DNA of 64,000 nt from a bacterium (GTDB taxonomy: Bacteria > 4484-113 > JAGGVC01), in assembly GCA_039961635.1 (NCBI GenBank), contig JABRWB010000041.1, positions 1,448 to 65,447 of the forward strand, in the 5' to 3' direction. Shown in pieces: positions 4,624-54,678 of the stretch (its first letter is position 1; each line of letters begins with the position of its first letter). The notes under the pieces were generated by a model. It made no database searches and had not been told where the DNA came from. It saw only the letters and a program-made list of their open reading frames with translations. A program made the position numbers and the translations under genes.

Positions 4624-4653
4624 CCATGGCGATAATGCCTATTAATGCTCAAT

Positions 4654-7263
4654 TTAATTCTCAAACCCCTGCTCCACCCATATCCCCTTCCACGCGTCGG
4701 CTTCCAGTATCTCCGCGATGCTTCCCGGCAGGTCGCAGAAGAACCCGTACTCCTTCCAGACTGTAATGAGATTGTTGGCGTTCGTGCGAGCCGGTGCAGC
4801 GCTCTCAGCCACCTCGGATTCGCCGGATTCCGAAGCTGCGGCACCGGCTGCGATCGAAGCCGCGACATCCCAGTTATAGCTATCCACATCCCCGCCCTCG
4901 TCTATGAACATCGACAGCGACGAACCGCCGTGGTAGTCGTTTCCGCCCGCGCGCGCCTGGCCCGGCGGGTAGTCGTATATATCCCGCCCGCCGCCGTCGC
5001 GGAAGATGCACAGCGAGTTGTGCGCGCTCGCGCCCTGCGAAAAGCCGGTTCCGCCCTCGTAGCGGTCGTCGCCGAACGAATCGTAGAAGTAAGTGACGCA
5101 CTCGTCCCACGCAAGCCCCTGCGCCACGCCCTGCCGCGTCTGGTACAGGTCGTCGCCGCCGTAATTGAGGAACACGCCGACGGCCTGGTGCGCCGAGAAG
5201 CCCTGGTTGTAGCGGCTGCCGACGAAGTGGTCGTTCCCGCCTTCGTCGTAGTAGAATCCGAGGCCGAAGTAGTAGCCACCGCCCTGCGAGAAATTGCCCG
5301 CTTCGCAGTAGTCGTCGCCGCCCAGGTCTATCACTCCAGCGATCCCGCCAGAGGCGTACTGGCGGAAGCCGTCCGCGCAGCCCTGGCTCCAGGAATCGAA
5401 AATGCCGGGGTCGCCGTAGTTCGTGGGGTTCACCCCTTTGGCGTAACGGTAGTCGTCGCCAGCGCCGTCCACGAGAAAGCTGACGGCCTTTGCGCCGGCG
5501 AACGCCTGGGATTTCAGATGCGCTTCGCAGCGGTCGTCGCCGGAGACGTCGTACAGGATGCCGGTGCCGAAAATGCTAGCCGCCTGGCAGAACGCCTGGC
5601 CGCGGTAGCTGTCGTTCCCCGCCGCGTCAACGAGCGCGCCGCAGCCGAAAAAGCCCGTGCCCTGCGCCCAGTTCATCCCGATGTAAGAATCGTCGCCTTC
5701 GAGGTCCACAAGCAGCCCGCAACCGAGGGAGCCGGAGCCCTGCGAATAGGGCAGCGTGGACTCGTAGGCGTCGTCGCCGCCGAAGTCGATCAGGACGCCG
5801 ACGGGGTGCCGGGGCGAGATTCCGCTGCCCGCGGTCGTCGAATAGAAATCGTCGCCGCCGAGGTCGATGACGAGCAGGTCGTGGCGGTACTGCGCCGGGT
5901 CGGTGGGCAGGTTGCGCCAGGTGCGGCCGGTTCCCTGAATGACGATCCATCCGAACGGAGTTTCCTTTTCGTAAAGGACAGGCTGGTCGAGCTTGCCGGC
6001 ATAAATACGCTTCAAGTTCGATTTCAACTCGTCCAGGTAATAGGGCTCCTGGAAAACCAGCAACTTCGCTTGAGCCGCCAAGAGCTTGCTGTATTCGATT
6101 TTTCTGGAAATTGCTATCAGCTTTGCGTTGTCTCGGAACCTGCGCTTGTCAGCATCTTCGTTGATGTAATTGTCCGCCGCAAACGCGTCAGCAAGACCGG
6201 CGCGATGTTCTGCGACAAAGGCTTTTTCCTCGTCGGACAAAGCAGAAAAAGCCTCGGACACTAATTCCGCAGCTTCTTTGAAGCGATTTTCCCAGTATGT
6301 GGTGTAGTTATCAATCGTGATATTGACGGGCATCTGCGCCATCCAGGATGTCGCCGCGTCGTTTTTCAGCATCCAGCTTGCGGTGGAATGTATTCCGTCA
6401 AATCCCCAAATCGTTTTCAAACCGCAGGATTTTAAATCGGCTTCAACAAGTTTTATGCACCTATCCATGGTGAAGCCGTCGCGCAGAATCAGTGAGACCA
6501 GATGGCTCCTGAATCCATCGTCGGGGCTAGCCCGGTTGTTCAGCCGCACAAACAGGTCATCAAATTGGGTTTGAGTGCCTGACGCGCTTGTCAAAATCTG
6601 CGCCAAATATCGAAGGTTGATTTCCGCATCTGTCATTGGATATGGAGAAGTCGTTTCGTTTGCATTTGCGCAGAGCGTATTCCATAGCTGCTCATTAGGC
6701 GGAATCGTCCCCGCGCCGCCTTCCGGGCGAGGGCCGAGGATAACGGTGAATTCAAGCGTGCGCGATTCGTTTATGGCTTCGAGCTTCACGACGTCGCCGG
6801 GCTTTGAGTGCGCGAGGATGTCCGGGTAATCCTCCAGCGGGAATTCGGTCGGGTATTCGACGCCGTTCACCGTAACGATCAGTTGCGGTCCCGGTCGAAA
6901 AACTTTCACGGCGAGCGAATCGCCGACGTGCTTAGATTTAAGCGCGTCCTGAAGCTGCTGGTTGTACGTCGCGACATCCGCGCCGAGTTCCTTTCCGTCG
7001 AGCGCGAGTATCACGTCTCCGGAGCGAAGTCCTGCTTTGTACGCTGGCGAGTCCAATACGGGATCGATCGCAAGTCCCGGCGGATCGGTGGAATTGGACA
7101 TATTGATGCCCATGTAAACGTTGTCCGTGGCGATGGCGGGGCATAGAGCGGATGCTACGACAAGGATGGCCGCAAAAACACAAATTACCGCATGATTTGC
7201 GGCGCATGCGGCGGTCAACAAATGCAAGCACTTTCCCATGGCGCTCTCCCGTGCAGGAATCAC
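4654..7263 (-). CDS. Secreted PDZ-domain protein with a helical middle region and about 12 tandem ~26-aa GGDDxY...QGxG repeats (predicted beta-solenoid).
   Basis: N-terminal signal peptide. PDZ motif GLRSGDVILALDGKELG. Repeat units such as LVIDLGGDDFYSTTAGSG, LIDFGGDDAYESTLPYSQGSGSLGCG, LVDLEGDDSYIGMNWAQGTGFFGCG, FLNYGGDDLYQTRQGVAQG and FYDSFGDDRYEGGTGFSQG. Extreme GC3 bias; the antisense ORF 4645..6264 was rejected. Confidence 0.8.
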   Translation of the reverse strand: MIPARESAMGKCLHLLTAACAANHAVICVFAAILVVASALCPAIATDNVYMGINMSNSTDPPGLAIDPVLDSPAYKAGLRSGDVILALDGKELGADVATYNQQLQDALKSKHVGDSLAVKVFRPGPQLIVTVNGVEYPTEFPLEDYPDILAHSKPGDVVKLEAINESRTLEFTVILGPRPEGGAGTIPPNEQLWNTLCANANETTSPYPMTDAEINLRYLAQILTSASGTQTQFDDLFVRLNNRASPDDGFRSHLVSLILRDGFTMDRCIKLVEADLKSCGLKTIWGFDGIHSTASWMLKNDAATSWMAQMPVNITIDNYTTYWENRFKEAAELVSEAFSALSDEEKAFVAEHRAGLADAFAADNYINEDADKRRFRDNAKLIAISRKIEYSKLLAAQAKLLVFQEPYYLDELKSNLKRIYAGKLDQPVLYEKETPFGWIVIQGTGRTWRNLPTDPAQYRHDLLVIDLGGDDFYSTTAGSGISPRHPVGVLIDFGGDDAYESTLPYSQGSGSLGCGLLVDLEGDDSYIGMNWAQGTGFFGCGALVDAAGNDSYRGQAFCQAASIFGTGILYDVSGDDRCEAHLKSQAFAGAKAVSFLVDGAGDDYRYAKGVNPTNYGDPGIFDSWSQGCADGFRQYASGGIAGVIDLGGDDYCEAGNFSQGGGYYFGLGFYYDEGGNDHFVGSRYNQGFSAHQAVGVFLNYGGDDLYQTRQGVAQGLAWDECVTYFYDSFGDDRYEGGTGFSQGASAHNSLCIFRDGGGRDIYDYPPGQARAGGNDYHGGSSLSMFIDEGGDVDSYNWDVAASIAAGAAASESGESEVAESAAPARTNANNLITVWKEYGFFCDLPGSIAEILEADAWKGIWVEQGFEN

Positions 7264-21049: not shown

Positions 21050-21087
21050 GAATGGAATGCTTTAATTGTGAGCCTGCCGGGGAAAGT

Positions 21088-21158
21088 AGCCCTAACGGGA
21101 CTCGAACCCGTGTTTTAGCCTTGAGAGGGCTACGTCCTAACCACTAGACGATAGGGCC
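21088..21158 (-). tRNA. tRNA-Glu, anticodon CUC.
   Basis: Reverse complement GGCCCTATCGTCTAGTGGTTAGGACGTAGCCCTCTCAAGGCTAAAACACGGGTTCGAGTCCCGTTAGGGCT. Cloverleaf with a 7-bp acceptor stem (one G-U pair), a TAGCC/GGCTA anticodon stem with loop CTCTCAA, and a GGTTCGAGTCC T-arm. CCA is not encoded. Confidence 0.8.
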
Positions 21159-24571: not shown

Positions 24572-26815
24572 CTACTTAAAGTAGTGGCATTCCCGGCAGG
24601 ATTTATCCGGATAATGCGCCTCGTCCTTGTCGGCATGGCACATTTGGCAGTTTTGCCTCGGCACCTCCCGCCAGGCGTGGTTTGCGTGGCAGGTCATACA
24701 GCTTTGATGACCATCGCGAACGTGCAGCCCCTTGGATGTCATATCCGCATGGCAAGACGCGCAGCTTTCGGGATCCGCCTTCCACTCGTGTGTCGCATGG
24801 CACATTGCACAGTTGTTTTTGATGCTCTCCTCGTTTGCCTGAAGCTTGTCCGCGTGGCACATCGTGCAAGATGGCATTTCAGTCTTGCTGAATGAGTGGG
24901 CTGCGTGGCACATCGTGCACGTCGTCATTTTCGATTTCAAGTTGGTTTCCGCAATGTCCGCATGACAAGTCGCACAGGCTACTTCCGGCTTGGGCGTCCA
25001 GTTGTGGTCAGCATGGCAGAAAGAGCAGGATACATGCGGCCCGGAGGAAGTTTCATCCGCTTTATCCGCATGGCAGCTAGCGCAATCCAGCGTCCGAGTC
25101 CAGGTATGAGGGATGTGGCACAGCGCGCAGTTTGCTTTGAATTGACCTGAAGAGGCGTTGCCGTTATCCACCTGCGATGGATGGCAGGTCTTGCAGGCTC
25201 CCGGCGGTTCGGGAGACCAGTTGTGCCCCGCGTGGCACATTGCACACTCGGGCATTCCAGCCGTGGCAGTGTCGGTTCCGATGTCTGCGTGGCAGGACAG
25301 ACACAAAATAGGCTCGGGTTTCCACAGGTGATCGGAATGACAAAGCGCGCAATCCGCCTTTACGTTGTTCAGCGACGCCAGACCGGAATCGCGCACGTCA
25401 GGATGACATTGGCCGCAGAACTTGCTGTTCCGGAGAGTGTGAACCGCGGCCATCTGGAATTCGTTCAGCTTCAGAGCTTTGTCGGCCTTTTGCTTCGCTA
25501 CTTCCGCTTCGGAGATTTCTAAGATTTGAGCAAGTTCCGCGTCCGTTGCCGCGGGAAGATTGGGCTTCCAGGTGTGTGGATTGTGGCAGAGGCTGCAATC
25601 CGCTTTGGCGGGCAGTTCTTTGGAATTGGCGACCGGGCTGTGATGGCAAGCGGCGCAAGACTGCCAGCCCTTGAAGCTGCCTTCGTGGGTGTTGTGGCAA
25701 ATGGCGCAGTTTTGCATTTTGCCTTTGAGCACTTCCTTGACAACTGGAGCATGGCAGCTGCGGCAAGTTGAGGATCCTCTGGGCGCTTTCCACGTGTGGT
25801 TCTGGTGGCATGACAAACATTGCTTATGTTTGGAAGGAATGCTGGAAGCGGGCACCGCGCCCGGATAAATGGCTCTTGAGTGGCATTCGAGGCATTTGGA
25901 TGGAGCTGCAACCTTCCAGTCGGAAATCGCGTGGCAGCTAAGGCAATCTTTGTGCTTCGCCGGTGCCGATGCGGGAGCGAAACGCTCCTTCCAGCCCGGT
26001 TCGTGGCAGCTTGCACAAGTACCGGTTTTGAAATTGCCCAGATAATGTGGGCTATGACATTGGATGCAGTTCTTGGGGTGGAATGGGAAGTTGTGTTCAA
26101 GCACTTCCGTTGTTTGGGTATGGCACTGCGTGCAAAACTCGGCGTTTCCGACGTTGGTCCAGGAATGGGGCTTGTGGCACTGAACGCAGGATTGATGTCC
26201 CGGATTGGAAGTCTGGCCCGGCTTATAAACCGCATGGCAGTTCAGGCAGGTAGAAGACGTAATCTCGTAACTTTCGTCGTGTGGATTGTGGCAACTCTTG
26301 CAGGATATTGCCATCGCAGCATCGGGGGAAAAGAAATCCTTGTTAATTTCAGTCTGCAGTGGTTCGGCGTGGCATATCTGGCAGTCGTTGAATTCGGGAA
26401 CAAGCTCCATTCCCGTTTTTTGGACTTTGAAAACGTGACAAGCCCAACAATGGTTTTTTGCCTGTTCGCTGGTGAAATGGCCTTCAGCGTGGCATTCGAG
26501 GCATTTTTTGGGATCGGGCAGCTCCAGGAAGTTGTCGGTGTTGTGGCACGTTGCGCATTCCATCCGCTCTTTGAGTACGTGGGAGCCGTGGCCGGGCGTG
26601 TTGGGAAGGGATTTCCACAGGTCTGCGGAAATTCCGGCAGGAGGTGTTTCGGAAAATTCGGAGACGGGCACTTTGGCGGCGTTGTGCTTGTCCTGACCGC
26701 CACACGTGGTCAATATCAAGATAGCCGGCAGAAGAAAAAAAAGACGCAAATCTGCGCTCGATTTGAGCGAGATTTGCGACCAAAAACGAAGCTTGGTTGG
26801 CGACGGCAGGGTCAT
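24572..26815 (-). CDS. Multiheme cytochrome c with 33 CxxCH motifs (747 aa), signal peptide or lipoprotein.
   Basis: 33 CxxCH motifs counted by eye, CATCH first and CRECH last. Spacing is regular at 10-22 aa. A 55-aa helical linker follows heme 17. The C-terminal half has an alternating 12/14-aa repeat CxxCHADHNW...CxxCHAD. Confidence 0.9.
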   Translation of the reverse strand: MTLPSPTKLRFWSQISLKSSADLRLFFLLPAILILTTCGGQDKHNAAKVPVSEFSETPPAGISADLWKSLPNTPGHGSHVLKERMECATCHNTDNFLELPDPKKCLECHAEGHFTSEQAKNHCWACHVFKVQKTGMELVPEFNDCQICHAEPLQTEINKDFFSPDAAMAISCKSCHNPHDESYEITSSTCLNCHAVYKPGQTSNPGHQSCVQCHKPHSWTNVGNAEFCTQCHTQTTEVLEHNFPFHPKNCIQCHSPHYLGNFKTGTCASCHEPGWKERFAPASAPAKHKDCLSCHAISDWKVAAPSKCLECHSRAIYPGAVPASSIPSKHKQCLSCHQNHTWKAPRGSSTCRSCHAPVVKEVLKGKMQNCAICHNTHEGSFKGWQSCAACHHSPVANSKELPAKADCSLCHNPHTWKPNLPAATDAELAQILEISEAEVAKQKADKALKLNEFQMAAVHTLRNSKFCGQCHPDVRDSGLASLNNVKADCALCHSDHLWKPEPILCLSCHADIGTDTATAGMPECAMCHAGHNWSPEPPGACKTCHPSQVDNGNASSGQFKANCALCHIPHTWTRTLDCASCHADKADETSSGPHVSCSFCHADHNWTPKPEVACATCHADIAETNLKSKMTTCTMCHAAHSFSKTEMPSCTMCHADKLQANEESIKNNCAMCHATHEWKADPESCASCHADMTSKGLHVRDGHQSCMTCHANHAWREVPRQNCQMCHADKDEAHYPDKSCRECHYFK

Positions 26816-26867
26816 CTGTCTAAACAGGGACAGGCGCCCAGGGACGCCGTCCGGGGCTTGAGAATTA

Positions 26868-28151
26868 CTACCGGTTTCCCAAAACCACCTTCGTATAGTA
26901 CAGCATCAGCAGGCCGTAAGCAAACACCAAAGCCCCCAAAATCAAAACTGTGCGCTTGGCCTGTCTGCCCCGCGAAATCAGTTTCGTGGTGAAAGACTTG
27001 ATTTCCATGTAAATGGATTCGGCCTCTTTGTGGTTGTCGGAAATGAGCTTTCCATCGACTGAATGCTGGAGGCCGCGCGCCGTAAGCAGTTTCGTGGTTA
27101 TTTCTTCCACCTTTGGAAGCATATCGGTCATACTTAAATGCGTAGTTTTTTCCGTTTCTTCAACTAGTGTAAGACACTCCTCGTGAAGCTCGTTTAGTCC
27201 GGCAAGCGATGTTTTTATCGTGTTAATCGTTGCGTACGCCGCGCTTTTGGTGTCGTGGCACGATAAACATCCGCCTTTTTCGGTTGATGTTATGAACTCG
27301 TCGGTAGGTTTTTTAAGCTTGTGATTATCGTGGCAAGTTATGCAGCGAGGAAAGCTCATAGCTTTGAAGGCTTCATTGTGAGGCCCTTGCGCGTAATATT
27401 GCTCGGTTCGAAGATGGCAAGAGCCGCATACATTCACGACAGAATCTACTCCCGGAGGCGCAGCGCCGTGATAGCCGTGGCAGGAAGTGCATACCGGTGC
27501 GGCTGTTTCCTTCTCCTTGAAAAGCAGTTCGCCATGCCGGCCGGCCATGTAATCGCTCACTATATCGGCGTCTATTCCATAGGCGGACATTAGCGATTTA
27601 TCTGCATGGCATTTGCCGCAGGTTGCAGGGATGTTTTCGTGATGCGTGGATGACTGCGGATTTGACGCTGGAGCAATTAAGTGCGGCGAATGGCAGTCCG
27701 AGCAGAATGCAACATTCATGTCGCCGTTTTCAAAAAAGCGCTTGCCGTGAATACTCGTTTTGTAAAGTTCAAGCTGATCGGTGCGCATATTTCCGAACTG
27801 CTTCATGTATTCCGGGTTTGCATGGCATTTCGTGCAGGTATCAAGTATCTGGCCGCCGGTCGGCTTGCCGACGAAACCAATTGCAGGATCCATCGCGACC
27901 GCCACGTCTCCTGAAGTTGGATCGCCTCCATGACAATCAACGCAACCCAGTCCCTTATCCCAGTGCGTGCTTTTTTTGAAATCCTGAACCAATTTCAGAT
28001 ATTTGCCTCCCATTTTTTCGTGGCAGGCGATACAACTATCCGAGCGTTTCCCTACAACCTCTTGAGCCAAGGCGGGTTTGGTCAAGAATAACAATAAAAG
28101 AGCAGTTATCGGCAAAAAAACCTCGCGAAATGCGATTCTAGGAGTTTTCAC
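26868..28151 (-). CDS. Nonaheme cytochrome c with N-terminal signal peptide and C-terminal TM anchor.
   Basis: 9 CxxCH motifs (CIACH...CLSCH), a coiled segment, then TVLILGALVFAYGLLMLYYTKVV. Confidence 0.9.
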   Translation of the reverse strand: MKTPRIAFREVFLPITALLLLFLTKPALAQEVVGKRSDSCIACHEKMGGKYLKLVQDFKKSTHWDKGLGCVDCHGGDPTSGDVAVAMDPAIGFVGKPTGGQILDTCTKCHANPEYMKQFGNMRTDQLELYKTSIHGKRFFENGDMNVAFCSDCHSPHLIAPASNPQSSTHHENIPATCGKCHADKSLMSAYGIDADIVSDYMAGRHGELLFKEKETAAPVCTSCHGYHGAAPPGVDSVVNVCGSCHLRTEQYYAQGPHNEAFKAMSFPRCITCHDNHKLKKPTDEFITSTEKGGCLSCHDTKSAAYATINTIKTSLAGLNELHEECLTLVEETEKTTHLSMTDMLPKVEEITTKLLTARGLQHSVDGKLISDNHKEAESIYMEIKSFTTKLISRGRQAKRTVLILGALVFAYGLLMLYYTKVVLGNR

Positions 28152-28582
28152 GAATAATACCCCCAGATTGTGAAAGTGATATAGAAAATCACAAATGCCA
28201 AGCCGGCGAGTGAAACCAGCGGCCTTTTGATGGGGTGCTGTGCATCTGCCGGAGTGCGATCAAGCCACGGCAGTAAAGCAACCGCCAGGAAAAACAGGCC
28301 GGAGATAATGATCGTAAACGGCTTGTTGAAATCTTGAATGCCGGCGAAGTCTTTTGGAACCACTTTTAATAGTTGATAAACCGCCAGAAAATACCACTCA
28401 GGCTTTATGTGGGTTGGAGTCGTGAAAGGGTCTGCGGGAGGTTCGAGCCCTTTTACGTATAAGCCGCACAAAATTACAATCAGGCCTAGGCAAAAAATCG
28501 CCACCGCCATTTCGGTTAAAAGGTGCGTCGGCCAAAACCTTGGCCCAACGACTTTTTCTCCTGGACGCGGATGGTAAACCAC
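28148..28582 (-). CDS. Cytochrome bc-complex subunit IV (PetD-like; equivalent to the C-terminal part of cytochrome b).
   Basis: PFTTPTHIKPEWYFLAVYQLLKVVPKDFAGI is the subunit IV / cyt b C-terminal signature. 3 TM helices. Confidence 0.75.
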   Translation of the reverse strand: MVYHPRPGEKVVGPRFWPTHLLTEMAVAIFCLGLIVILCGLYVKGLEPPADPFTTPTHIKPEWYFLAVYQLLKVVPKDFAGIQDFNKPFTIIISGLFFLAVALLPWLDRTPADAQHPIKRPLVSLAGLAFVIFYITFTIWGYYS

Positions 28583-28591
28583 GATGACCTC

Positions 28592-29287
28592 CTAAAGCGG
28601 GCCTGAAATGCCCTGGCGCCTGATCATAAGGAAATGACCAAGCATAAAAACAAGCGTCCCCAAAGGAAGAAAGACAACGTGCAACATGAAAAACCTGGTT
28701 AAAGTGTCGCCGGATACCGTGGCTCCGCCCCTTAAAAGCACTATAAGAAGGTTTCCAAGCGCAGGCGGGGGCACGGCCTTAGCCAAATCGGTGCCGACAG
28801 TAGTCGCCCAGTAGGCAATTTGATCCCAAGGAAGCAGGTATCCCGTGAAACCGAATAAGAGTCCGATTAAGAGCAATACCACCCCACTGACCCAAGTCAT
28901 CTCTCGCGGTGCTTTGTAGCTTCCTGTAAAGAAAACCCGCGCCATATGGAGGAAGAGAAACACAATGAACAAGTTCGCGCACCAATGGTGGACGCTTCTG
29001 ACAAACCAGCCGAAGCTGACCTCGGTAGCGATGAATCTAACCGAGTTATATGCCTCTGAAACTGTTGGCTTATAGTAAAGAAGCAAAAGAATTCCGCTTA
29101 CAAGCTGGATGCCGAACATCAAAAAGGTCAAGCCGCCAAGGCAGTACATCCAGTTTGTTGCGTGCAATGGGACGATCTGGTTGGCTTGCGCGCGCCACCA
29201 TTCCCGCCATTCGAACCGTTCCTCGAACCAGTCGCCTACCCGCCAACTCCAAGGCCTTTCAGATTTGCTTTGAGGAGATGCGCTCAT
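28592..29287 (-). CDS. Cytochrome b6-type subunit (short cytochrome b N-terminal domain).
   Basis: WMYCLGGLTFLMFGIQLVSGILLLLYYKP...VRSVHHWCANLFIVFLFLHMARVFFTGSYKAPREMTWVSGVVLLL...LPWDQIAYWA. The His ligands for hemes bL and bH are present. Confidence 0.85.
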   Translation of the reverse strand: MSASPQSKSERPWSWRVGDWFEERFEWREWWRAQANQIVPLHATNWMYCLGGLTFLMFGIQLVSGILLLLYYKPTVSEAYNSVRFIATEVSFGWFVRSVHHWCANLFIVFLFLHMARVFFTGSYKAPREMTWVSGVVLLLIGLLFGFTGYLLPWDQIAYWATTVGTDLAKAVPPPALGNLLIVLLRGGATVSGDTLTRFFMLHVVFLPLGTLVFMLGHFLMIRRQGISGPL

Positions 29288-29748
29288 GACACCTCCGCCC
29301 CAACGAAGATTTTTCCTTCCCGTATTACCACTTTGTATTGCTTAAGATCCCTGGGTGAGGGGCCGGCGATCAACTTGCCGTCGAACGTGAACCGTGCGCC
29401 GTGGCAGGGACAATCAAGTTCATTGCTTGCAACGTCGACCATGCAGCCAAGGTGAGGACATTTTTTTTCTAGTGCTTTTAACGCTCCATCGGCAAGGAAT
29501 ACGATAATCGGGACGCCATCAGATCCCATTACAGTTTTGGGAGAACCGTCGCCCACCGACCCCTCGGGGCCCACCTCGATCAGTTCGTTTTTCTCCGACG
29601 TTCGTTTGGGTGGAATAAGGATGTTGAGTAAGGGGAAGCAAATGATGAATGCAAGGCCGAGGAAAGAGCTCCCAAGAAGCCATTCGACAGCCTTGCGACG
29701 AGCCTCATTGGACTCGTCAGCATGCCCTGGTTCGAATTCCTTTACCAC
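29284..29748 (-). CDS. Rieske [2Fe-2S] iron-sulfur protein (possible Tat substrate).
   Basis: CPHLGCMVDV...CPCHGARF are the Rieske boxes. N-terminal EARRKAV followed by a TM helix. Confidence 0.85.
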   Translation of the reverse strand: MVKEFEPGHADESNEARRKAVEWLLGSSFLGLAFIICFPLLNILIPPKRTSEKNELIEVGPEGSVGDGSPKTVMGSDGVPIIVFLADGALKALEKKCPHLGCMVDVASNELDCPCHGARFTFDGKLIAGPSPRDLKQYKVVIREGKIFVGAEVS

Positions 29749-29820
29749 TATTAACCTCCGAATCGGGGAAACACAGAGCCATAAAAATGCTAGTGGTGTT
29801 TTCTCAACTTGTCAACAGTT

Positions 29821-41669: not shown

Positions 41670-41714
41670 CGGTTGCAATTTCAGCCCGCAAAGGAACCCT
41701 TCGGCAAGGGGAAA

Positions 41715-43961
41715 ATGGTATTAAAACAAGATATAAGCCGCGCGCGTGCTTTTGCGTCCGTTGCGCGAATAACCAAGGCGGTCTTGGCAATCGTCACTAT
41801 TGCCGCGGTTATTGGCGGCGTCAATCTGATTTTCTACAATTCTGAACGCGAAATAAACGCCATTGTCAACAGGCCACGCCAGGCGAAATACAGCATCGCG
41901 CTAAACGAGAACCGGGCTACGGGTATAAACGATCGCGGGGAAATCGTCTGGGAAATCGAGAGTGAAAAAGTGACCGTTTCCGCACGCGAAGACCAGTATG
42001 AATTTCATAAGGCTACCGCCCGGTTTTTTGACAGCCAGGGTCCGAACCTGTATATCGAAGTCGAGAAAATCGTGTACGACGAGCCTTCCCAGGATCTTCA
42101 TCTTCTTGGCGGAGTGCACCTTTTAACCAGAGATGAAATGGCCGTCTCAACCGAGGAAGTCCACTGGCGGCACTATTCCAATCAATTCATCTTTCCGAAG
42201 CAGGTCGAACTTCGTACAAAGGAAGGAAATTTGGTTTCCGCAGATTACATGCACGGGGATAAAAACCTTCGCCAGCTTTTCTTCGTGGGTCATTGCCAGA
42301 TTAAAATCATTGAACTCAAAGACACAAAATTCATTAGCGACCGCGAGCTTACGAAAACACAGCTCAAGCTCCAGGACTTCAAAAACATCTTCATTTCGGC
42401 AGACAAGGTCTATTACGACAAGGAGCTCGAGGTTACTGTCGCTGTAAGTTCGTTTTCCGACAAACAGTATAATGTGACCGATCCCCGGACAGGAATGCCG
42501 GTTGAAATCGACTACGGCGACGAGCCGCCCGGTCAGATTTATTTTCGGAAGGGAGAAATCGAGCTGGTCGCCAATCACGTGGAAGTCCATCAAAAGGACT
42601 CCTGGGCGAAATGCTACGGCAACGTGCAAATGAGGATCAATCCAGCGGAGATTAAGCCAAACGACGCTCCCGCCCTGCGTTCGATGAAAAAGCGTACGAC
42701 CCTGATTACCGCCAACGACATAGAATACTTTTGGGATTCGGACTACGCGCGCACGTACGGCAGAAGCGTTGTCATGCAAGACGATCGCAGGGCCGGCGCC
42801 TGGGGAGTCACCTATTACGGCAAGTTCCAGGATGACGAAACCGGCCAATTGCGCAAGGTTGTGTGGCTGGATGACGAGATTTTTATTTTTCAAGGCAGCG
42901 GAGAGTGGCTTAAGGAAGACGAGGTTCTAAAAGATTTTAAAAATCCGGATGTCGAGAAGATGTTATTTGAGGCGGTCAAAGTCACCGGCGATAAAGCCGT
43001 GTTGTTTCTTGATTCGGCGGATATTTACGGAGCCGGAAACGTCCGCGTGAGGCAAAAAGATAAAATCGCGACTTGCGACGAGATGCTGTTTGACGACAAG
43101 AAAAAGAAATTCACATGTCAAGGACACGTCCTGTACGTCAACAAGAAGGATGAAAGTTTTACGGGCGAGCAGATCATCTTTTTCTCGGATTCTGACGACA
43201 TCGAGGTAAACGGCAAAGCCGACGCTTCGATAAGAATCCCGCCGAAGTACACGAAAAAATTTGACGAAGTTAAGCGCAGTCTGGCGGAACGCGGTGCAAA
43301 AAACACATCCGACGAAGAGGCCGTCGCGATTGCCGAAGCGGAGCGGGCCAAGTGGCGCGAGGAGAACAAGCCCTGGGAATTTCTGCCCGGATGGATTGAC
43401 GACGTGCTGCTGCCGGGATTTGGCAAAGGAAGCCGTCCCTTATTTCCAGAAGCCCCGGCTGAAGCGTTTTCGGCGGACGGATTTGATTGGATGCAGAGAT
43501 TGTCGGGCGACGAGGTAGGAATTACACCGTGGAAAAAGGACGGCGCGGCGCCGGGCCAACCCGGATTTGGCCGTTCCGGTGATGCCGAGGTTCTTCCCGA
43601 AGGCATTCCCTTGGCTCCGCCGCAAGTTTCGGGACTTTCGGGGCGAGATGCGGTCAGCGAAAAGAGGCGCGAACTCGGATTGGAAGATCCAAGAGAGGTT
43701 CCGGGGCGATTGCCGCTCTCCCCTCCGACCGGAGGCGAGTTCATTCCCCCTCCAATAAAGGAATCTGGCGAAAAAAGTGCAGACGGACCACTGGAGCTTT
43801 TTTTCAAACTCCAGGACGATATGAATTCAAGGCACGACAACTCATCAGGAGACTCAGGTAAATCGGGCGAATCCAACGACATTCCAGCCGACAGCGGTAA
43901 CAAAAGAGATCCGGGCGATGCGATTGTCATCGAACCGCGCAAGGATGTGGATGACAAATGA
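41715..43961 (+). CDS. Giant LptC-like protein: N-terminal TM anchor, multiple OstA/LptC-like beta-jellyroll repeats, and a Pro/Gly/Glu-rich disordered tail (about 750 aa).
   Basis: TM segment AVLAIVTIAAVIGGVNLIFY, then alternating-hydrophobic beta patterns typical of LptC/LptA (GGVHLLTRDEMAVSTEEVHW...). Start placed at ATG 41715 with a GGGGAAA SD. The six-frame track's TTG start (41673) was rejected. Confidence 0.55.
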   Translation: MVLKQDISRARAFASVARITKAVLAIVTIAAVIGGVNLIFYNSEREINAIVNRPRQAKYSIALNENRATGINDRGEIVWEIESEKVTVSAREDQYEFHKATARFFDSQGPNLYIEVEKIVYDEPSQDLHLLGGVHLLTRDEMAVSTEEVHWRHYSNQFIFPKQVELRTKEGNLVSADYMHGDKNLRQLFFVGHCQIKIIELKDTKFISDRELTKTQLKLQDFKNIFISADKVYYDKELEVTVAVSSFSDKQYNVTDPRTGMPVEIDYGDEPPGQIYFRKGEIELVANHVEVHQKDSWAKCYGNVQMRINPAEIKPNDAPALRSMKKRTTLITANDIEYFWDSDYARTYGRSVVMQDDRRAGAWGVTYYGKFQDDETGQLRKVVWLDDEIFIFQGSGEWLKEDEVLKDFKNPDVEKMLFEAVKVTGDKAVLFLDSADIYGAGNVRVRQKDKIATCDEMLFDDKKKKFTCQGHVLYVNKKDESFTGEQIIFFSDSDDIEVNGKADASIRIPPKYTKKFDEVKRSLAERGAKNTSDEEAVAIAEAERAKWREENKPWEFLPGWIDDVLLPGFGKGSRPLFPEAPAEAFSADGFDWMQRLSGDEVGITPWKKDGAAPGQPGFGRSGDAEVLPEGIPLAPPQVSGLSGRDAVSEKRRELGLEDPREVPGRLPLSPPTGGEFIPPPIKESGEKSADGPLELFFKLQDDMNSRHDNSSGDSGKSGESNDIPADSGNKRDPGDAIVIEPRKDVDDK

Positions 43962-45352
43962 AGTCTGTCAGTTTGTCGGCTTCAAAATTGATTGCTTGTT
44001 TGGTGTTACTTTTATTCGCATTGCAGTTTGCGCTTGGCACGCGGGCGTTGGCCCAAGAAAGTGGCGCGGATTCCACTGAGTACGGCGAATCAGAACCGGA
44101 GCAGGGCAAGTACACGCGGCGCGGATTTGTCCGGATGTTTATCCCCAATGGGCGGATTACCGGCAATACAACCGACAAGCTTTATCATGTGGAAGGCGGC
44201 CTTGAAGTTTATTACTTCGATGTCAAGATTACGGCGGACGAGGCGGATATTGACCAAAACACCGAAACTGCCACGCTTTCCGGAAATGTTTTTTTCGAGG
44301 ATCCGGAATATCGAATCACTTGCAACAAGCTTTTTGTGGATTACAAAAACAACTGGATGAGCGCGGAAGGATTCGTGCAGTTCAACCGGTACAACGAAGG
44401 CAAGGCCAAAGTCGTTGAAACTCTGTCCAAGCGCAACCGTTTGATTACAGTGTTGAAAAACAAAACAACCAAAGTTTATTGTGGCAAGCTCAATTACAAT
44501 TGGGATACTGAAGACTTTTCGGCAGAAGGCGAAGTCAAGGTTGTACAGGAAGGTCTGACAATAGAAGCTTCCGAAATGAGCTACGAAAAGGCAACCGGCA
44601 ATTACTCGTTGTCTGGAGATGTCGTCTTGGTAATGGACAACTACGACTGGCTTTACCAGGCAAAGGTGGTAGCGCAGGAAGATGCGGACTTGGTCAAATC
44701 CCTAACCAAACGCAAGACGACGATCAAGTGCGAAAGCATGCTTGTGAACGACGAAAATGGCAACGTGCGCTGTCTTAAGGGGACCGGAGAGGACCGCGTG
44801 ACTGTGGATCAGGGCGATAAAAGGCTTGAATGCGACGATTTGGCGGTTGACGATGCAAAGAAAACAATGACAACCAAGGGCAATGTCAAATACTGGCAAA
44901 AGGACGGCAACTGGCTCGTCGAAGGCGGCCTTATTAAACGGGAAGAAGCGGAGAAGGAACTTCTTGACGAAATACAGGAACCGATGACAATCCTAGCCGA
45001 AACCATGCTTTTTGATTATGACAAGCGTAAGATGGAAGGCCTGGCGGGAGATGGTGAAACAATCAAAATCGAAGGCCGAAAGGGCAGGGGAGCCCAATCG
45101 AAGAAAATGACCTTCGACGACAAGGAAAAGCTTCTTGAAATGTCCGGCGGCGTGATTATTAATTCCGGCGAGGAATTTCTTTATTGCGATTCATTGTCGG
45201 CTGATACAGACAACAAGGTATATATTTTCAGCGGGGACGTGGACGGATTTTTCATGTATCAGAACCGCGAAAAGAAGGGCGAAGCCGAAGAAATCGCGCC
45301 AGCGGATTCGGGCAACGCTAATGGAAGTCAATCCCGCGAGTCGACGCGGTAA
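43958..45352 (+). CDS. Extended LptA/OstA-like periplasmic protein (464 aa, signal peptide), translationally coupled to the LptC-like gene.
   Basis: Signal peptide. OstA_N-like pattern LSGNVFFEDPEYRITCNKLFVDYKNNWMSAEGFVQF repeated several times. ATGA overlap with the upstream stop. Confidence 0.55.
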   Translation: MKSVSLSASKLIACLVLLLFALQFALGTRALAQESGADSTEYGESEPEQGKYTRRGFVRMFIPNGRITGNTTDKLYHVEGGLEVYYFDVKITADEADIDQNTETATLSGNVFFEDPEYRITCNKLFVDYKNNWMSAEGFVQFNRYNEGKAKVVETLSKRNRLITVLKNKTTKVYCGKLNYNWDTEDFSAEGEVKVVQEGLTIEASEMSYEKATGNYSLSGDVVLVMDNYDWLYQAKVVAQEDADLVKSLTKRKTTIKCESMLVNDENGNVRCLKGTGEDRVTVDQGDKRLECDDLAVDDAKKTMTTKGNVKYWQKDGNWLVEGGLIKREEAEKELLDEIQEPMTILAETMLFDYDKRKMEGLAGDGETIKIEGRKGRGAQSKKMTFDDKEKLLEMSGGVIINSGEEFLYCDSLSADTDNKVYIFSGDVDGFFMYQNREKKGEAEEIAPADSGNANGSQSRESTR

Positions 45353-47509: not shown

Positions 47510-50500
47510 TCAGGTTACTTCGACTGCCACACCGGGAGTAAGAAAAACCAACTTGGCCGAATCCACCGGCCCCAATCCTGCTTCAACCGCCTTGATGTAG
47601 ACCCACATTTGGAGGAAGTAATTCTCGGCTCTTCCATTTACTTCTGCCATGTCAACCGCGTCCGTTTTCCAGTCAACCAAAATTCTGCGTCGGTCGCATT
47701 CAAAAATCAAGTCCACCGCGCCTTGAGCCACCACGAAATCATCGTCATTAAGCATTACAATTGAGGGGCTGATTGCGGATGATTGCGGCATGTTTGGATT
47801 TGCCAGTGCCGTTAGGGCTCTTAATGCTCTTGGTTCTGATGCGAAGTCCTCTCTATTTAACCTTAACAAAAATCTCCATTCTGTTCTTGCAAATCCTTTC
47901 CCGCTTAAAAAACGCCCAAGCGGCGTTTCCAGAAAAGAATGAATCCGATTCATTTCTATATTGCTTGCATCTGATTCGGCGATTTTGCCCAGAGAAACGA
48001 GCTCCGCAAGAGTTTCTTCCGGATTTATACCGACACCACAACCGAATGGCAAATTGGACATGAGAATGTGAACCGCCGAGCCGAGTCGAAGCGAGTCATT
48101 GCGCAGATTGTGTGAATTTCGCGAGGCATCCCTCGGTTCGAACGATTCGGCGATCATTCGCAAACCTTCCGGATCGTCGTATTTGGATAGGGACGATGCG
48201 CTTATCTTTCGCGGAATGCTTATCGTTGAAGAAAATGGATACTTAAAGAGCACGGCATCGGGAATCTTCAGTTCCGCTTCATTCAACGGAGTTACATCCA
48301 TGCCAAGTTCGGTTTTAAGAGCAAGGTTGGGAAGTGTCTCTTTTCCGATTGCAGCCTTCAGCTCGGATTCCCGGAACACATCGCAGCTCAAATCCGCATC
48401 CAAGCCTTGCGGCGCAATCCCACCAATTTGAACGCCGATTGATTCCAGGGCCGCGTAAACAGGTTTTGCCTCAATAAAAATGGGCATTAGCCAATCCATA
48501 AAGTTGCAGGCTTCGTCCCGTTCCCTTATACATTCGTTTTTGGCGGTCCTCCTCGCTGCATAGCTTACCTTGAAGGCGGATTCGCGTACCGAACCGACCA
48601 TTATCAGCCGTTCTCTTGCGCGCGTTAGGGAAACGTAAAGTTTTCTAGCCTCCTCCTCAAGCATTTTGTGGCGCAGCGCCCGTTCGACAATGCGGTAAGG
48701 AGGAGATGGATAGGTAGCGTGGCGGTTGGGGTGAAGTAACCTGCAACCAAAACCAATTTCACGATCGAAAATTACGGCTCTTTTCGATTCATCGAATCTG
48801 AATTTATGTCCCAAACCGGCTGCGATCACTATCGGAAACTCAAGCCCCTTCGCTTGATGAATGCTTGTGATTTGAACTCGGTCTCCGACCGCCGATGTGG
48901 GAAGTTCGATTTTGTCTTCCGCCGACGCTTTTTTAATCAAATCTCCGAGTCCTCCCGGCGGCATGGATTCCGAAATTCCGGCGAACCATTCCAGTCTGGA
49001 GCTTGAATCCGCTGTCCCGTAACCGAGCCGGGCAAGGCTGTCCAGATTAGAATCGCGTATAGTTTTCAGCACCACTTCAGACAACTCATCCGACTGGGCA
49101 GTTTGGCGCATTTCAGTAAGCCATTCCAGGAAACGCTCAATTTTCAATCGCTCTTCAGTTGCGAATCGCATAAGCTCCTCTGATGGAGCACTTTCGCCCA
49201 AGGCCTCTGAAAGAACTGTCAGAACTTGATTATAACCCTTGCTGGTGACCGAAGACACAACTGCATCGAACAGCAGCTCGCAATGTTCCATTGAGCTTCT
49301 GATGGCAAGAAGGTAGTCAGGCGTTAGGCCGACCAAAGGACCGAGCAAAACCGCAGAAAGCGGAATATCCTGCAACGGATTGTCAATAACGCGCAATATG
49401 CTTAACAGATCCCTAGACAATGGATCGGACATAAGTTGCGCGCTACCTCCTGCTGAAAACCAGAACGGAATTCCGTAACGGCCGAACACCTCCGCATATG
49501 TATCCACCCAATTGACCGGTGCGGACAAAATAAGGGCTACGTGCCTGAACGATATCGGGACAGGCCTTTTCTGCCCATCATTTTCTTCGATTACTTTAAT
49601 TGCAGGCACCGAATTAACCAACGATAAAATTTCCCTGGCGACAAGTGATGCCTCCAGCTCTTTGCGGGATAAGTCGGTTTCTTCAAAGTCGCCGCCCGCA
49701 TTTTCCGTATCAAAATCATCGTTTTCAACCTCTTTGTCGTCTACGCGAGTTCCCGATGACAAAATAAGCTTCAACGATACGTGCGGAGTTACGCATCCGG
49801 ATGCGCACTGGCTCAATTCATTTCCAGCGCCACTTATAAGCTTGTGTCCATCGCAATAGTCAATCCCGCCGAAATTCTCGGAAAAAATCCGTGAAAAAAC
49901 AGCGTTTACCACGTCTATTACGGGTTTGACGCTTCTGAAATTATCGGGCAGGTCGATTAAACTGGACGATTCATCTTTGCCCTTTCGGATAAGGTTCAAT
50001 CGGTTAACAAATAAATCCGGCTCGGCATGCCTGAAGCGATAAATGCTTTGCTTTACATCGCCAACCATAAAAAACATTTTCGCGCGTTGCGACAGGCATT
50101 CGAAAATCGCATCTTGAATAGGGCTGGTGTCCTGATATTCGTCAATAAGAATATGATCGAATCTGTCGGCCAAAACTTCGGCCACATGCTTGTTGCTTGC
50201 CGCTGTTTCGGCTAATAAAGTATGTGCGTATCTTTCCAGGTCGGAAAAATCCAGCATTTTCAAGCGTAGTTTGATTTTCGAAAAGCACTCCGTGTACTTG
50301 TAAACCAAATCTATTAATTCGGGCAATATCTGCGAGGACGAAAACTTTTTCAATTCAGAAAGTATGATAAGCTCCGGAACCAGCCACGTTTTTCTAAAAT
50401 CGGACTTTATCCTGTTTCTAAATTTCACCCAAGACTCCTTAGTTCGATCCAGCTCGTAAATGTTACACTTCGCAGGATAGCGGGGAGTCCAGCTTGCGCC

Positions 50501-54300: not shown

Positions 54301-54678
54301 AATCAAATCCAGAATTTGATCCATTTGCCCGGTACCTGCGGTACCGGTGCTCGCCAAAAACGGGGGCATTTGTTCATCGGCAAGAATCCTGAAAAGCAAC
54401 AACCGCTTAATATTAGGATCGGCGAGTTCTTGTTTAGGCTCGTAGCCAAGAACACGCGGGAGCATTTTGAAACCGGTTATGGCCAAATCGCTGATGACGG
54501 GAGATTTCGATTTTGAAAGGAGCAGCCGCTCGTACTGCGCGGTGGCTTGATCGGGAACCAGCAAAATCATAAGTGATTCCCGGTCCGCACGGTTTGCCGC
54601 GATATCCAATATATCCCGCGCGATTTCGTGCGTTTTCCCGCTGCCTGCAGGTCCTATGATGAATTTTAGTTTAGCCAT
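51322..54678 (-). CDS. addB: AddB-type helicase-nuclease subunit with a C-terminal Fe-S-cluster nuclease domain.
   Basis: MAKLKFIIGPAGSGKTHEIA...C-terminal CLCDYCNYASVCR cysteine cluster. 4-nt overlap with addA. Confidence 0.8.
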   Translation of the reverse strand: MAKLKFIIGPAGSGKTHEIARDILDIAANRADRESLMILLVPDQATAQYERLLLSKSKSPVISDLAITGFKMLPRVLGYEPKQELADPNIKRLLLFRILADEQMPPFLASTGTAGTGQMDQILDLISECKRCGFPLEMLAEAADASQRPWLHSKINYISYLAAKLNSELESRNLVDDTAGLEILAGDIPKLLSKRTLRLWIDGFSRFTAGELSVIRALVQGSRQTTIALLMNPSDLSPSGKNKDNPRDRIDTSPLGYPLATYFALDSMASAFKIEREYLNLERKTWRFAEAPELNALEIGIRQGRKSPNNLPRQKLPGSQIRDFRLVAVPTSSAEIRFVAREIRRLVCSGVRYKDISVVSRSLEPYRRLISDCFPKYDIPFFLDCPRPLAVRPALRLFSDLLDFAVEPDRRSMLSLLRNPHSGVPLESTDRLENLLLRFAVPNEGICEHSVKLVGEFEPAHETHLAAFLISLGEYGSRITRPLTAPEFEYEMQGIVKMLFPGIEERVRGDIIELEAYNLAVRTLHEIGVLCGDEKMSVRMFSELFEAAVSDAKAKIPPPALDEVIVSEIERGRQESPKHVFLLGLIDERFPLKGGDGGLITQEEKLYLRQQGFPLEGDGVSRFIMERYLFYVACTRASNSLTVTIPIRESSEAVPSPLLSMLPDWAAGRIEENDVPETPRNLSEAVTPIEFASYLQSKGMQRELLVPSNGEVRLAETLNLQAPPAAAKLHKWGTALRVKYCNRISPTRLEKYSACPFAYFAEADLRLFNRPEGRPDSLSLGAIYHAILEKTLTESLTRKLCWRGGDQSALLALMDEAATYVLNDASCDWSRIPAFKLLQDQIKRDVKKTFLIILQTLNAGLFDPLLAEQWLGNQEGALPQVKIEVDDVRFLVSGRIDRIDLEANSGCLAVVDYKSGLKKISWDKLFHGLDIQLLFYGYALEMLAGNIVQAIGVADNPPRPKVGALLWFHISPDIYSRPTFEDAGEDKGIMRKSRGLISEHAARLLDKSATGWSKYYSIYFNKNGGFGYQNKIDVIGAGDWKTLFDWFTAYLRRILSEIAEGRIAVAPVKVGNYCLCDYCNYASVCRMNPSHDIVRLAGKAGDKESVISLMKRELEGVQ

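Follow-up and report, generated by a model that had tools for sequence, protein, structure and literature searches.

A Rieske/cytochrome b6-type gene cluster with a nonaheme cytochrome c subunit adjoins the gene for a 33-heme lipoprotein

Five adjacent genes in a 64,000-nucleotide stretch of bacterial DNA (hereafter, the window) raise the question of whether a quinol-oxidizing complex can be wired directly to an exceptionally long chain of hemes. The first-pass annotation of this DNA described a Rieske 2Fe-2S protein, a cytochrome b6-type subunit, subunit IV (SuIV), an anchored nonaheme cytochrome c and a cytochrome c with 33 CxxCH motifs, and proposed that they belong to an unconventional quinol oxidoreductase that feeds a heme wire. 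An ORF check of the window recovers all five open reading frames on the minus strand between positions 24572 and 29748, and the locus is organized as follows.

29787-29815, minus strand: candidate promoter, TTGACA-17-TAGCAT, approximately 40 nt upstream of the Rieske start
29284-29748, minus strand: Rieske 2Fe-2S subunit (154 aa, GTG start, one transmembrane segment, N-terminal RRK motif)
28592-29287, minus strand: cytochrome b6-type subunit (231 aa, four transmembrane segments)
28148-28582, minus strand: SuIV, corresponding to the C-terminal part of cytochrome b (144 aa, GTG start, three transmembrane segments)
26868-28151, minus strand: nonaheme cytochrome c (427 aa, GTG start, nine CxxCH motifs, C-terminal anchor)
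26816-26867, minus strand: spacer of 52 nt between the nonaheme and 33-heme genes
24572-26815, minus strand: 33-heme lipoprotein cytochrome c (747 aa, ATG start)

The named parts agree with the annotation in coordinates, Pfam matches and topology, and the counts of 9 and 33 CxxCH motifs are exact. The HMM searches that had been suggested as a check match the subunits to Rieske (PF00355, E = 1.6e-13), Cytochrome_B (PF00033, 2.4e-58) and Cytochrom_B_C (PF00032, 3.6e-16), as well as to multiheme families. Elsewhere in the 64-kb window, six-frame ORFs of at least 60 aa contain only two isolated CxxCH motifs, and therefore chance is excluded as the origin of the 9 and 33. Orthologous clusters from other metagenomes, whose proteins are 49-79% identical to these, have unchanged gene lengths and motif counts of exactly 9 and 33, as expected for real genes under selection. 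The cluster is flanked by NAGPA and QueA, which are housekeeping neighbors.

The genes had also been described as tightly packed with 4-nt overlaps. This holds for the Rieske/b6 and SuIV/nonaheme junctions only, since 9 nt separate b6 from SuIV and 52 nt separate the nonaheme gene from the 33-heme gene. Clear ribosome-binding sites of the GGAGG type precede the Rieske, b6 and SuIV genes, and a weaker G-rich stretch (GGGGG) occupies the corresponding position before the nonaheme gene. No terminator-like site was found in the 52-nt spacer, whose predicted RNA fold is no more stable than shuffled sequences (z = -0.47). The promoter-like site ahead of the Rieske gene is only a candidate: it matches at 10 of 12 positions, and sites of this kind occur in the region just as often as shuffling predicts.

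Judging from cofactor motifs, the first three genes encode a genuine Rieske/b6-type complex. Both cluster-binding boxes of the Rieske subunit are intact (CPHLGC at aa 97 and CPCHG at aa 113, nt 29386-29460). The b6-type subunit, which matches solved b6 chains with an E-value of 5.9e-70, carries the heme ligand pairs His100/His114 and His203/His218, whose spacings of 14 and 15 follow the b6 pattern. Its Cys49, within YCLGG (aa 48-52; Cys at nt 29141-29143), is a candidate attachment site for heme ci. The Qo motif PEWY is present in SuIV (aa 61-64, nt 28391-28402) and is conserved in orthologues. The redox signature of the Rieske protein is A-F, which is devoid of both hydrogen-bond donors (the Ser and Tyr that raise the potential), and the low-potential G-F class of Rieske proteins likewise lacks these donors (PMC4122944). 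This signature suggests a Rieske protein of the low-potential type and, on that basis, menaquinol as the substrate.

The nonaheme protein presumably replaces cytochrome f or c1 in this complex. Its start codon overlaps the SuIV stop by 4 nt, which we count towards its being the c subunit, and its C-terminal transmembrane segment (aa 401-419, nt 26895-26951) resembles the anchors of cytochromes f and c1. After a signal peptide, the nine hemes occupy one domain (aa 40-299); a helical hairpin comes next (aa 304-364), and then a long helix that leads into the anchor. The protein has the traits of a large family: a length of about 420 aa, nine CxxCH motifs, eight distal His residues plus an invariant Met, a C-terminal transmembrane segment and a gene located right after that for cytochrome b. 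This family is found in at least 596 species genomes from many phyla. Among 80 loci examined, 77 encode a cytochrome b somewhere in the locus, and 66, spread over many phyla, have the order Rieske, cytochrome b, nonaheme protein. The four-gene core is thus common in uncultured bacteria and far more ordinary than the annotation implied, and our literature search turned up no study of its biochemistry or structure.

The 33-heme protein, by comparison, is rare, with three close clusters among 1.84 billion representatives. Its signal peptide ends in the lipobox LTTC (aa 35-38, nt 26702-26713), which is conserved in orthologues, and Gly occupies position +2 after the lipobox Cys. The hemes extend from aa 87 to aa 744, one for about every 22 aa, mostly as diheme units of the form CxxCHxxHxW...CxxCH, and the last lies three residues from the C-terminus. 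Owing to a lineage-specific helical insert of 55 aa (aa 412-466, nt 25418-25582), heme motifs 17 and 18 are 60 residues apart. Exactly 33 motifs are retained at 49% identity, and a full-length alignment of 28 sequences from the wider family (700-790 aa) reveals that 32-34 hemes are kept. Invariant heme motifs and a C-terminal CxxCH-x-F-x end are shared throughout this wider family, and both are present in the 33-heme protein. Pfam reports Cytochrome_C7 and c3 matches, and the only matches to solved structures are marginal sequence matches to small tetraheme cytochromes (E about 1e-3). The AlphaFold model has a pLDDT of 51 and is unusable, and so it lends no support to a 'wire' geometry.

A functional link between the 33-heme protein and the Rieske/b6 complex is plausible from gene neighborhoods. 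The adjacency of the 33-heme gene to the Rieske, b6 and nonaheme genes is kept in three related lineages despite different downstream flanks, as in L082 and L083-85, where the downstream gene is another one. The four-part order recurs in a MAG labelled Deltaproteobacteria (L090), where identity is 28% and the cytochrome b is not split. More broadly, a quinol dehydrogenase lies within a few genes of 33-heme family members in six of eight distinct contexts, and these enzymes are of the Rieske/cytochrome b, NapC/NirT-like or cytochrome b561-like type. The proposed pairing with a 33-heme partner therefore gains from this recurrence, but the five genes do not form an obligate unit. In a close relative (L093), the 33-heme gene sits between the same flanking genes (NAGPA on one side, QueA-TrmFO on the other) and the four complex genes are absent, which means that the linkage is not obligatory and that the 33-heme gene can have its own promoter.

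This arrangement in L093 also favors a different reading of the locus, wherein the Rieske, b6, SuIV and nonaheme proteins constitute a general complex III that serves any periplasmic acceptor, and the 33-heme gene is an independently transcribed neighbor, acting as an electron store or in another pathway rather than as a dedicated partner. The 52-nt gap and the absence of a visible Shine-Dalgarno sequence ahead of the 33-heme ATG fit such a separation. So does the broader family, because a giant cytochrome with at least 20 hemes occurs within 10 kb at only 6 of the 80 nonaheme loci, and because Acidobacteriaceae, Gemmatimonadales and other lineages labelled aerobic heterotrophs commonly have the nonaheme family. 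Against this reading stand the persistence of the adjacency in three related lineages with rearranged flanks, its recurrence at only 28% identity in L090, and the quinol dehydrogenases found near 33-heme family members in six of eight contexts. We consider this explanation unlikely, although it is the strongest of the competitors.

The account that we favor, with moderate confidence, is a Q-cycle quinol:multiheme-cytochrome oxidoreductase that feeds a modular periplasmic heme wire. The substrate would be a quinol of low potential, menaquinol being the most likely, and its oxidation would take place at a Qo site formed by SuIV with its PEWY motif, cytochrome b6 and the low-potential-type Rieske cluster. 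One electron would return to the quinone pool through the two b hemes and probably heme ci, giving a proton-motive Q cycle. The Rieske cluster would hand the other to the nonaheme chain, whose single His/Met heme is the probable point of entry, and the nonaheme protein would relay it, through direct contact, to the 33-heme lipoprotein encoded alongside. The latter may serve as a modular heme wire or electron store that can pair with various quinol dehydrogenases, in this case with a Q-cycle enzyme. The window carries Lpt genes, which imply an outer membrane and hence a periplasm. Neither an outer-membrane conduit nor a terminal reductase is encoded in the 64-kb window, which also has no further cytochrome genes and no gene for a final acceptor or donor of the 33-heme protein. 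One weakness of this scheme concerns energetics. Most hemes appear to be bis-His ligated, and such hemes usually have lower potentials than a Rieske cluster near +150 mV. Onward transfer from the Rieske cluster may thus be uphill unless the potentials are tuned.

If the flow were reversed, the 33-heme wire would take up electrons from an external or periplasmic donor (for example, Fe(II), a mineral or a partner cell), and these would reach the quinone pool by way of the nonaheme protein and the Rieske/cytochrome b core. Rieske/cytochrome b complexes are reversible in principle, and their reverse operation has been discussed (PMC4122944). The same nonaheme family is also found in the cluster of Zixibacteria RBG-1 (L080), for which a comparable role has been proposed, iron oxidation being the function favored by its authors (PMC3903129). 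Nevertheless, the APWY or GPWY Qo motifs linked to reverse-operating complexes are absent here, where the motif is PEWY; the low-potential Rieske signature fits forward oxidation of menaquinol; and no outer-membrane oxidase (Cyc2, MtoAB) is encoded in the window. Electron uptake as the physiological direction is improbable in our estimation.

Finally, it is very unlikely that the nonaheme subunit is itself an enzyme, namely a membrane-anchored relative of hydroxylamine oxidoreductase and the octaheme reductases with an open catalytic heme, so that the cluster would reduce N-oxides or S-oxides with electrons from quinol and use the 33-heme protein as electron buffer. The predicted structure has long helices and appears to have a heme core like that of hydroxylamine oxidoreductase; it has no close relative among solved structures, and Foldseek returned no significant match. 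Identity to the hydroxylamine oxidoreductase/octaheme family is only 16-18%, and the subunit differs from that family in its membrane anchor and in having nine hemes, each with a conserved candidate sixth ligand. Across 115 sequences, eight His residues and Met188 are conserved as candidate distal ligands (His258 is replaced by Met in three of these), and nine ligands for nine hemes point to an electron-transfer protein in which all hemes are six-coordinate.

A bolder extension of the Q-cycle account, which we offer tentatively and regard as doubtful, is that the 33-heme proteins are fixed-length, single-polypeptide cables that bridge the periplasm and plug interchangeably into three unrelated quinol dehydrogenases, docked in this case to a proton-motive Q-cycle enzyme via a nonaheme adaptor with a hydroxylamine oxidoreductase fold. 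The lipid anchor would fix one end, possibly in the outer membrane given Gly at position +2, and the last heme would be exposed near the C-terminus. Were this true, energy conservation would be tied directly to long-range electron export or import across the cell envelope, and no diffusible carriers in the periplasm would be involved. Moreover, the retention of 32-34 hemes at 25-30% identity would reflect selection on length, as in a molecular ruler for the width of the periplasm.

In its very dense heme packing, the 33-heme protein is like long single-chain wire cytochromes, among them GSU1996, a polymer of the c7 type, and Geobacter proteins with 27 hemes. Published models of a 27-heme protein span about 350 A, compared with a periplasm width of about 170 A (PMC11492766). 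The 33-heme protein differs from such wires in its diheme repeat, in being a lipoprotein and in adjoining a Rieske/b6 complex.

No characterized system matches the five-gene combination, as the annotation had anticipated, and the assignment to unconventional Rieske/cytochrome b complexes with multiheme c subunits is the right one from gene content and Pfam matches. The phrase 'alternative complex-III-like' does not apply in its technical sense. Alternative Complex III (ActABCDEF) was rejected, as the locus has a Rieske protein and cytochrome b and contains neither a molybdopterin-like FeS subunit (ActB) nor NrfD-like subunits of the ActC/ActF type.

Two other systems had been put forward for comparison, and neither proved orthologous. 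The first is the ExtMNOPQS (Cbc6) cluster of Geobacter sulfurreducens (GSU2930-2935), which encodes a Rieske protein, a 23-kDa cytochrome b, a small membrane protein and cytochromes with 10 hemes (about 47 kDa) and 12 hemes (PMC5877670, PMC2825233). Its parts list is comparable, and neither system has been characterized biochemically. However, the match of the window cytochrome b to the ExtP model reaches 258.8 bits (cut-off 290), that of SuIV to ExtQ 14.7 bits (cut-off 150), and NCBIfam matches with E up to 10 include no Ext-family model for either window cytochrome. In Geobacter the cytochromes lie upstream, which is not the gene order seen here; the porin, rhodanese and selenoprotein genes of the Ext cluster are absent from the window; and the partner has 33 hemes rather than 12. 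Orthology was rejected on these scores, gene order and flanks, and for the 10-heme ExtN and 12-heme ExtM cytochromes on the NCBIfam matches and the flanking genes.

The second comprises the anammox clusters of Kuenenia (Kustd1480-1485 and Kuste4569-4574), with a b6-like four-helix cytochrome b, a SuIV-like protein and, where b6f complexes have cytochrome f, an anchored cytochrome c with six or eight hemes. Long helices of one of these cytochromes wrap around the complex (PMC12954380). The b6-like/SuIV/multiheme plan is the same, and our nonaheme model likewise has long helices. Yet the window cluster encodes no NAD(P) oxidoreductase subunit and no HAO-like extra subunit, and the anammox Rieske proteins carry Ser (S-Y or S-F) rather than A-F. 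Orthology was rejected by gene content, and the cytochromes were compared by their published descriptions.

The b6f complexes of cyanobacteria and chloroplasts share with the window the split into a four-helix b6 and a three-helix SuIV, the His spacing of 14 and 15, the Cys of YCLGG, PEWY and a Rieske subunit. In place of cytochrome f, the window has a C-terminally anchored nonaheme cytochrome c of a different fold, and its Rieske signature is A-F (low-potential type) rather than the S-Y of b6f. All three subunits miss the NCBIfam b6f cut-offs (280 versus 325 bits for PetB, 57 versus 250 for PetC and 48.5 versus 127 for PetD), and no photosynthesis genes are present in the window.

A further likeness is to the nonaheme modules of Acidobacteriota, Zixibacteria, KSB1, Gemmatimonadota, Ignavibacteriales and others, which share 32-40% identity, nine hemes, a C-terminal transmembrane segment and the order Rieske, cytochrome b, nonaheme protein. 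In 2013, the RBG-1 example was described as PetAB accompanied by multiheme cytochromes (PMC3903129). In most of these widespread modules (75 of 81), cytochrome b is a single chain of about 360 aa that lacks the cysteine for heme ci, and most have no giant cytochrome nearby (74 of 80). The locus is best read as a variant of a known, uncharacterized sort of complex: a minority form with a split b6 that bears the candidate heme-ci Cys, to which a 33-heme gene has been added.

The five minus-strand open reading frames that the first-pass annotation had placed between positions 24572 and 29748 were all found exactly there:

29284-29748, minus strand: Rieske protein, 154 aa
28592-29287, minus strand: cytochrome b6, 231 aa
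28148-28582, minus strand: subunit IV (SuIV), 144 aa
26868-28151, minus strand: nonaheme cytochrome c, 427 aa
24572-26815, minus strand: 33-heme cytochrome c, 747 aa

A scripted count of CxxCH motifs likewise returned exactly the 9 and 33 that had been claimed for the two cytochromes c. Elsewhere in the 64-kb window only two such motifs occur, both isolated (any reading frame, ORFs of at least 60 aa), and no other cytochromes were found in the window outside the cluster. The subunit assignments, for which HMM searches had been proposed, are matched by Pfam across the five products (Rieske, Cytochrome_B, Cytochrom_B_C and multiheme families). The reported tight packing with 4-nt overlaps holds at two junctions (Rieske/b6 and SuIV/nonaheme), whereas 9 nt separate b6 from SuIV and 52 nt separate the nonaheme gene from the 33-heme gene. 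The observations made in the first pass are confirmed, and the interpretation attached to them is partly supported. GGAGG-type ribosome-binding sites accompany the Rieske, b6 and SuIV genes; a weaker G-rich stretch (GGGGG) precedes the nonaheme gene, and the 33-heme gene lacks a site of this kind. A search of the 52-nt gap yielded neither a terminator nor a stable or structured RNA. A hydropathy scan gives one membrane helix for Rieske, four for b6 and three for SuIV, and shows a signal peptide and a C-terminal helix in the nonaheme protein. The 33-heme protein has a signal peptide that ends in a lipobox.

Judged by its sequence, the window cytochrome b is a true b6-type protein. Its match to solved b6 chains of chloroplasts and cyanobacteria (E 5.9e-70) is far better than that to bc1 cytochromes b, and its heme ligands (His100/His114 and His203/His218) are spaced by 14 and 15 residues, which is the b6 pattern. 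It also keeps the YCLGG cysteine, the counterpart of the cysteine that binds heme ci in b6f, and SuIV carries PEWY. Rieske, b6 and SuIV all score under the NCBI cut-offs for b6f proper. The Rieske protein has both cluster boxes and, at the redox signature positions two and four residues past CxCH, the pair A-F. In the classes of Kao and Hunte, G-F marks low-potential proteins (about 150 mV) and S-Y high-potential ones (PMC4122944), the potential being raised by Ser/Tyr hydrogen bonds (PMC12954380). Because the A-F pair lacks both hydrogen-bond donors, we infer that the window complex is a low-potential, menaquinol-type enzyme. Its most likely function is that of a proton-motive quinol:cytochrome c oxidoreductase, which would operate a Q cycle.

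The nonaheme protein belongs to a large family. A homology search returned 1437 relatives, and at least 596 genomes have one in a scan of a single genome for each species, which used a pattern (Cx[DST]CHG[NTS]HGA) that left out the window's own lineage, where a Tyr stands in place of a permitted residue. Hosts include Acidobacteriota, Zixibacteria, KSB1, Gemmatimonadota, Ignavibacteriales, Chloroflexota, Aminicenantes, Calditrichota, Nitrospinota and Coatesbacteria, among others. Of the 80 loci kept, 66 have the Rieske, cytochrome b and nonaheme genes in that order on a single strand, a contig end interrupts three more, and 77 include a cytochrome b. As this recurring order indicates, a very widespread Rieske/cytochrome b complex has the nonaheme protein as its regular c-type subunit. 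One example, L080 from Zixibacteria RBG-1, was recorded in 2013 as 'PetAB' accompanied by multiheme cytochromes (PMC3903129). Most cytochromes b in these loci are unsplit, about 360 aa long and devoid of the heme-ci cysteine. That cysteine occurs in 6 of 81, all of them split b6 proteins (L002, L006, L007, L010, L019 and L037), and the window form, a split b6 with the cysteine, is a minority in the family. The nearest named module, from a MAG labelled Bacillota (L002), is 38-56% identical to that of the window.

Two further arrangements were seen among these loci. A protein of ~550 aa with 11-14 TM segments and an N-terminal coiled coil recurs beside the module in L004, L008, L014, L017, L050, L057 and L069, from hosts labelled KSB1, Deferribacteres, Cytophagia, Acidobacteriota, Chloracidobacterium and Actinomycetota. 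Its gene comes directly after the nonaheme gene in all of these loci but L008, which has it between the genes for cytochrome b and the nonaheme protein. We considered that these 12-TM proteins might be heme-copper oxidases and rejected the idea, as the L004 protein is a DUF2339 member and the others appear alike by eye; the DUF2339-type protein may be an extra subunit or an assembly factor. In two Gemmatimonadota loci (L018 and L074), two Rieske/cytochrome b/nonaheme modules stand in tandem, and directly after the second is a gene for a 21-heme protein of about 665-670 aa that matches the window 33-heme protein weakly.

An AlphaFold2 model of the nonaheme protein is confident (pLDDT 90.2) and comprises a heme domain at aa 40-300 followed by a helical hairpin and then a long helix that enters the membrane, with a predicted HAO-like heme core (HAO, hydroxylamine oxidoreductase). 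Foldseek returned no significant relative of this model among solved structures, and a PDB sequence search with the protein alone gave nothing below E 0.07. The family profile has weak matches to 6r2q_A and 6i5b_A, which we take to be the decaheme MtrA chain and Thermincola OcwA, and then NrfA, NrfB and HAO sequences. Candidate distal ligands are eight non-motif histidines and Met188, which are 97-100% conserved among 115 aligned sequences (His258 is replaced by Met in three). Nine candidates for nine hemes argue for an electron relay with eight bis-His hemes and one His/Met heme.

The 33-heme protein has about 22 residues per heme, is built mainly of diheme units ('CxxCHxxHxW...CxxCH') and stops three residues past the last heme. 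A word-indexed homology search was incomplete for its repetitive CxxCH words and missed even the protein's own record (L001), so an exhaustive HMMER search of 1.84 billion representative proteins was needed. This gave 632 matches at E<=1e-3, 54 of them at E<=1e-30, and only three close clusters (43-52% identity). The wider family comprises proteins of 700-790 aa with 24-30% identity and 32-34 hemes, in whose alignment the heme motifs form invariant columns. Among the best 150 of the 632 matches, heme counts are bimodal, with peaks at 25-27 and 33 and with exactly 33 motifs in 21 proteins, so that lengths seem to fall into discrete classes and not along a continuum. A cytochrome with 33 motifs was listed, without further analysis, in a bioanode metagenome study (PMC7399161). 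The AlphaFold2 model of the window protein (28-sequence alignment; pLDDT 51, pTM 0.30) is unusable, and its sole confidently predicted part is a helical, heme-free insert of 55 aa (aa 412-466, window 25418-25582; pLDDT 82-96) within the 60-residue gap between heme motifs 17 and 18. This insert, present in all three close orthologues checked and missing from distant family members, may be a docking or dimerisation element.

The remaining window genes are housekeeping genes (citrate synthase, TrmFO, QueA, AddAB, Lpt proteins, aminotransferases and peptide-binding proteins), and the Lpt genes imply a diderm cell with a periplasm. Two adjacent plus-strand genes (41673-43961 and 43958-45352) encode unusually large proteins of 762 and 464 aa, each joining LptC-like with LptA/LptD-N-like domains, and this pair suggests that the envelope is diderm and that its LPS transport bridge is non-standard. 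The AddA/AddB-type helicase-nuclease pair (47510-54756, minus strand) measures 1271 and 1144 aa. The plus-strand ORF at 4645-6264 overlaps a minus-strand ORF (4654-7263) and is probably spurious, since the latter has PDZ domains. The sole Rfam match in the window is one tRNA gene (21087-21158, minus strand), with no rRNA. For TrmFO, even the best named relatives reach only 51-53% identity, suggesting that the lineage has been poorly sampled.

All five genes of the cluster are found together again in L082 and L083-85, with identities to the window of 65-67% for Rieske, 78-79% for b6, 78.5% for SuIV, 60-63% for the nonaheme protein and 49% for the 33-heme protein, and with exactly 9 and 33 motifs and the lipobox kept. 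These loci have the same upstream flank as the window (NAGPA, aminotransferase, DUF1015 and others), whereas the downstream neighbour is UvrC rather than QueA. The same order is seen in L090, from a MAG labelled Deltaproteobacteria, which encodes a Rieske protein, an unsplit cytochrome b, a full-length nonaheme homologue (28% identity, E 3e-53, 9 hemes, C-terminal TM) and a 32-heme family member 28% identical to the window 33-heme protein. Other family members adjoin NapC/NirT-like proteins (L086, L089) or cytochrome b561-like proteins together with nonaheme-like anchored cytochromes (L087/88, L089, L091). The latter cytochromes (L087:12465-14322, L089:5655-7645 and L091:5474-7422) have 8-9 hemes, a C-terminal TM and about 30% identity to the window nonaheme heme domain, and their membrane partners are of the cytochrome b561 type (Ni_hydr_CYTB). 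Anchored multiheme domains of one kind thus serve two unrelated quinol-oxidising membrane modules. Overall, a quinol dehydrogenase lies within a few genes in six of eight distinct contexts. Counting against an obligate linkage is L093:1-5355 (Logan SRR22388160), where a 33-heme orthologue (43% identity, lipobox) lies between NAGPA and QueA-TrmFO. Its flanks are those of the window, and the Rieske, b6, SuIV and nonaheme genes are absent from the locus; either these four were cleanly deleted there, or they were inserted in the lineage of the window.

We propose that the nonaheme subunit would contact the modular 33-heme periplasmic lipoprotein and pass electrons to it, or receive them from it, with the final partner likewise putative. 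In a published model a 27-heme protein extends for about 350 A, against about 170 A for the periplasm (PMC11492766), so by analogy a 33-heme chain could span the periplasm. Such coupling, if real, bears on how electrons cross the periplasm and on the question of whether a Q cycle and extracellular electron transfer can be coupled. The nonaheme subunit, with its HAO-like predicted core and no solved relative, is the standard Rieske/cytochrome b partner in hundreds of uncultured species, and the complex may therefore be among the commonest uncharacterised forms of 'complex III'. The 32-34-heme proteins are a distinct family found repeatedly beside quinol dehydrogenases of three different types. 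The window lineage combines a true b6-type core with both, and the five proteins of its cluster form a compact, well-defined set for expression and cryo-EM studies.

Genomes of Geobacter, anammox bacteria and Zixibacteria have been known for more than 15 years to encode Rieske/cytochrome b complexes with multiheme c subunits. The literature calls the roles of these complexes uncharacterised or unclear (PMC5877670, PMC2825233, PMC12954380), no solved structure of such a complex was found in the PDB or the literature searched, and a search of Dibrova et al. 2017 (PMC5600118) for multiheme partners found nothing. The comparison with anammox and Geobacter clusters proposed in the first pass bears out a likeness of design and parts, but not membership. 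The anammox complexes share the b6/SuIV/multiheme design, although their NAD(P) oxidoreductases are absent from the window (PMC12954380). Geobacter ExtMNOPQS/Cbc6 has a comparable parts list (PMC5877670, PMC2825233), but only the window cytochrome b comes near the Ext models; SuIV and the cytochromes c are far from them, and we rejected this assignment. The label 'alternative complex-III-like' does not stand, because Pfam finds Rieske and cytochrome b, and the cluster is not Alternative Complex III. Rather, it is a new variant of a kind of complex that is already known, though uncharacterised.
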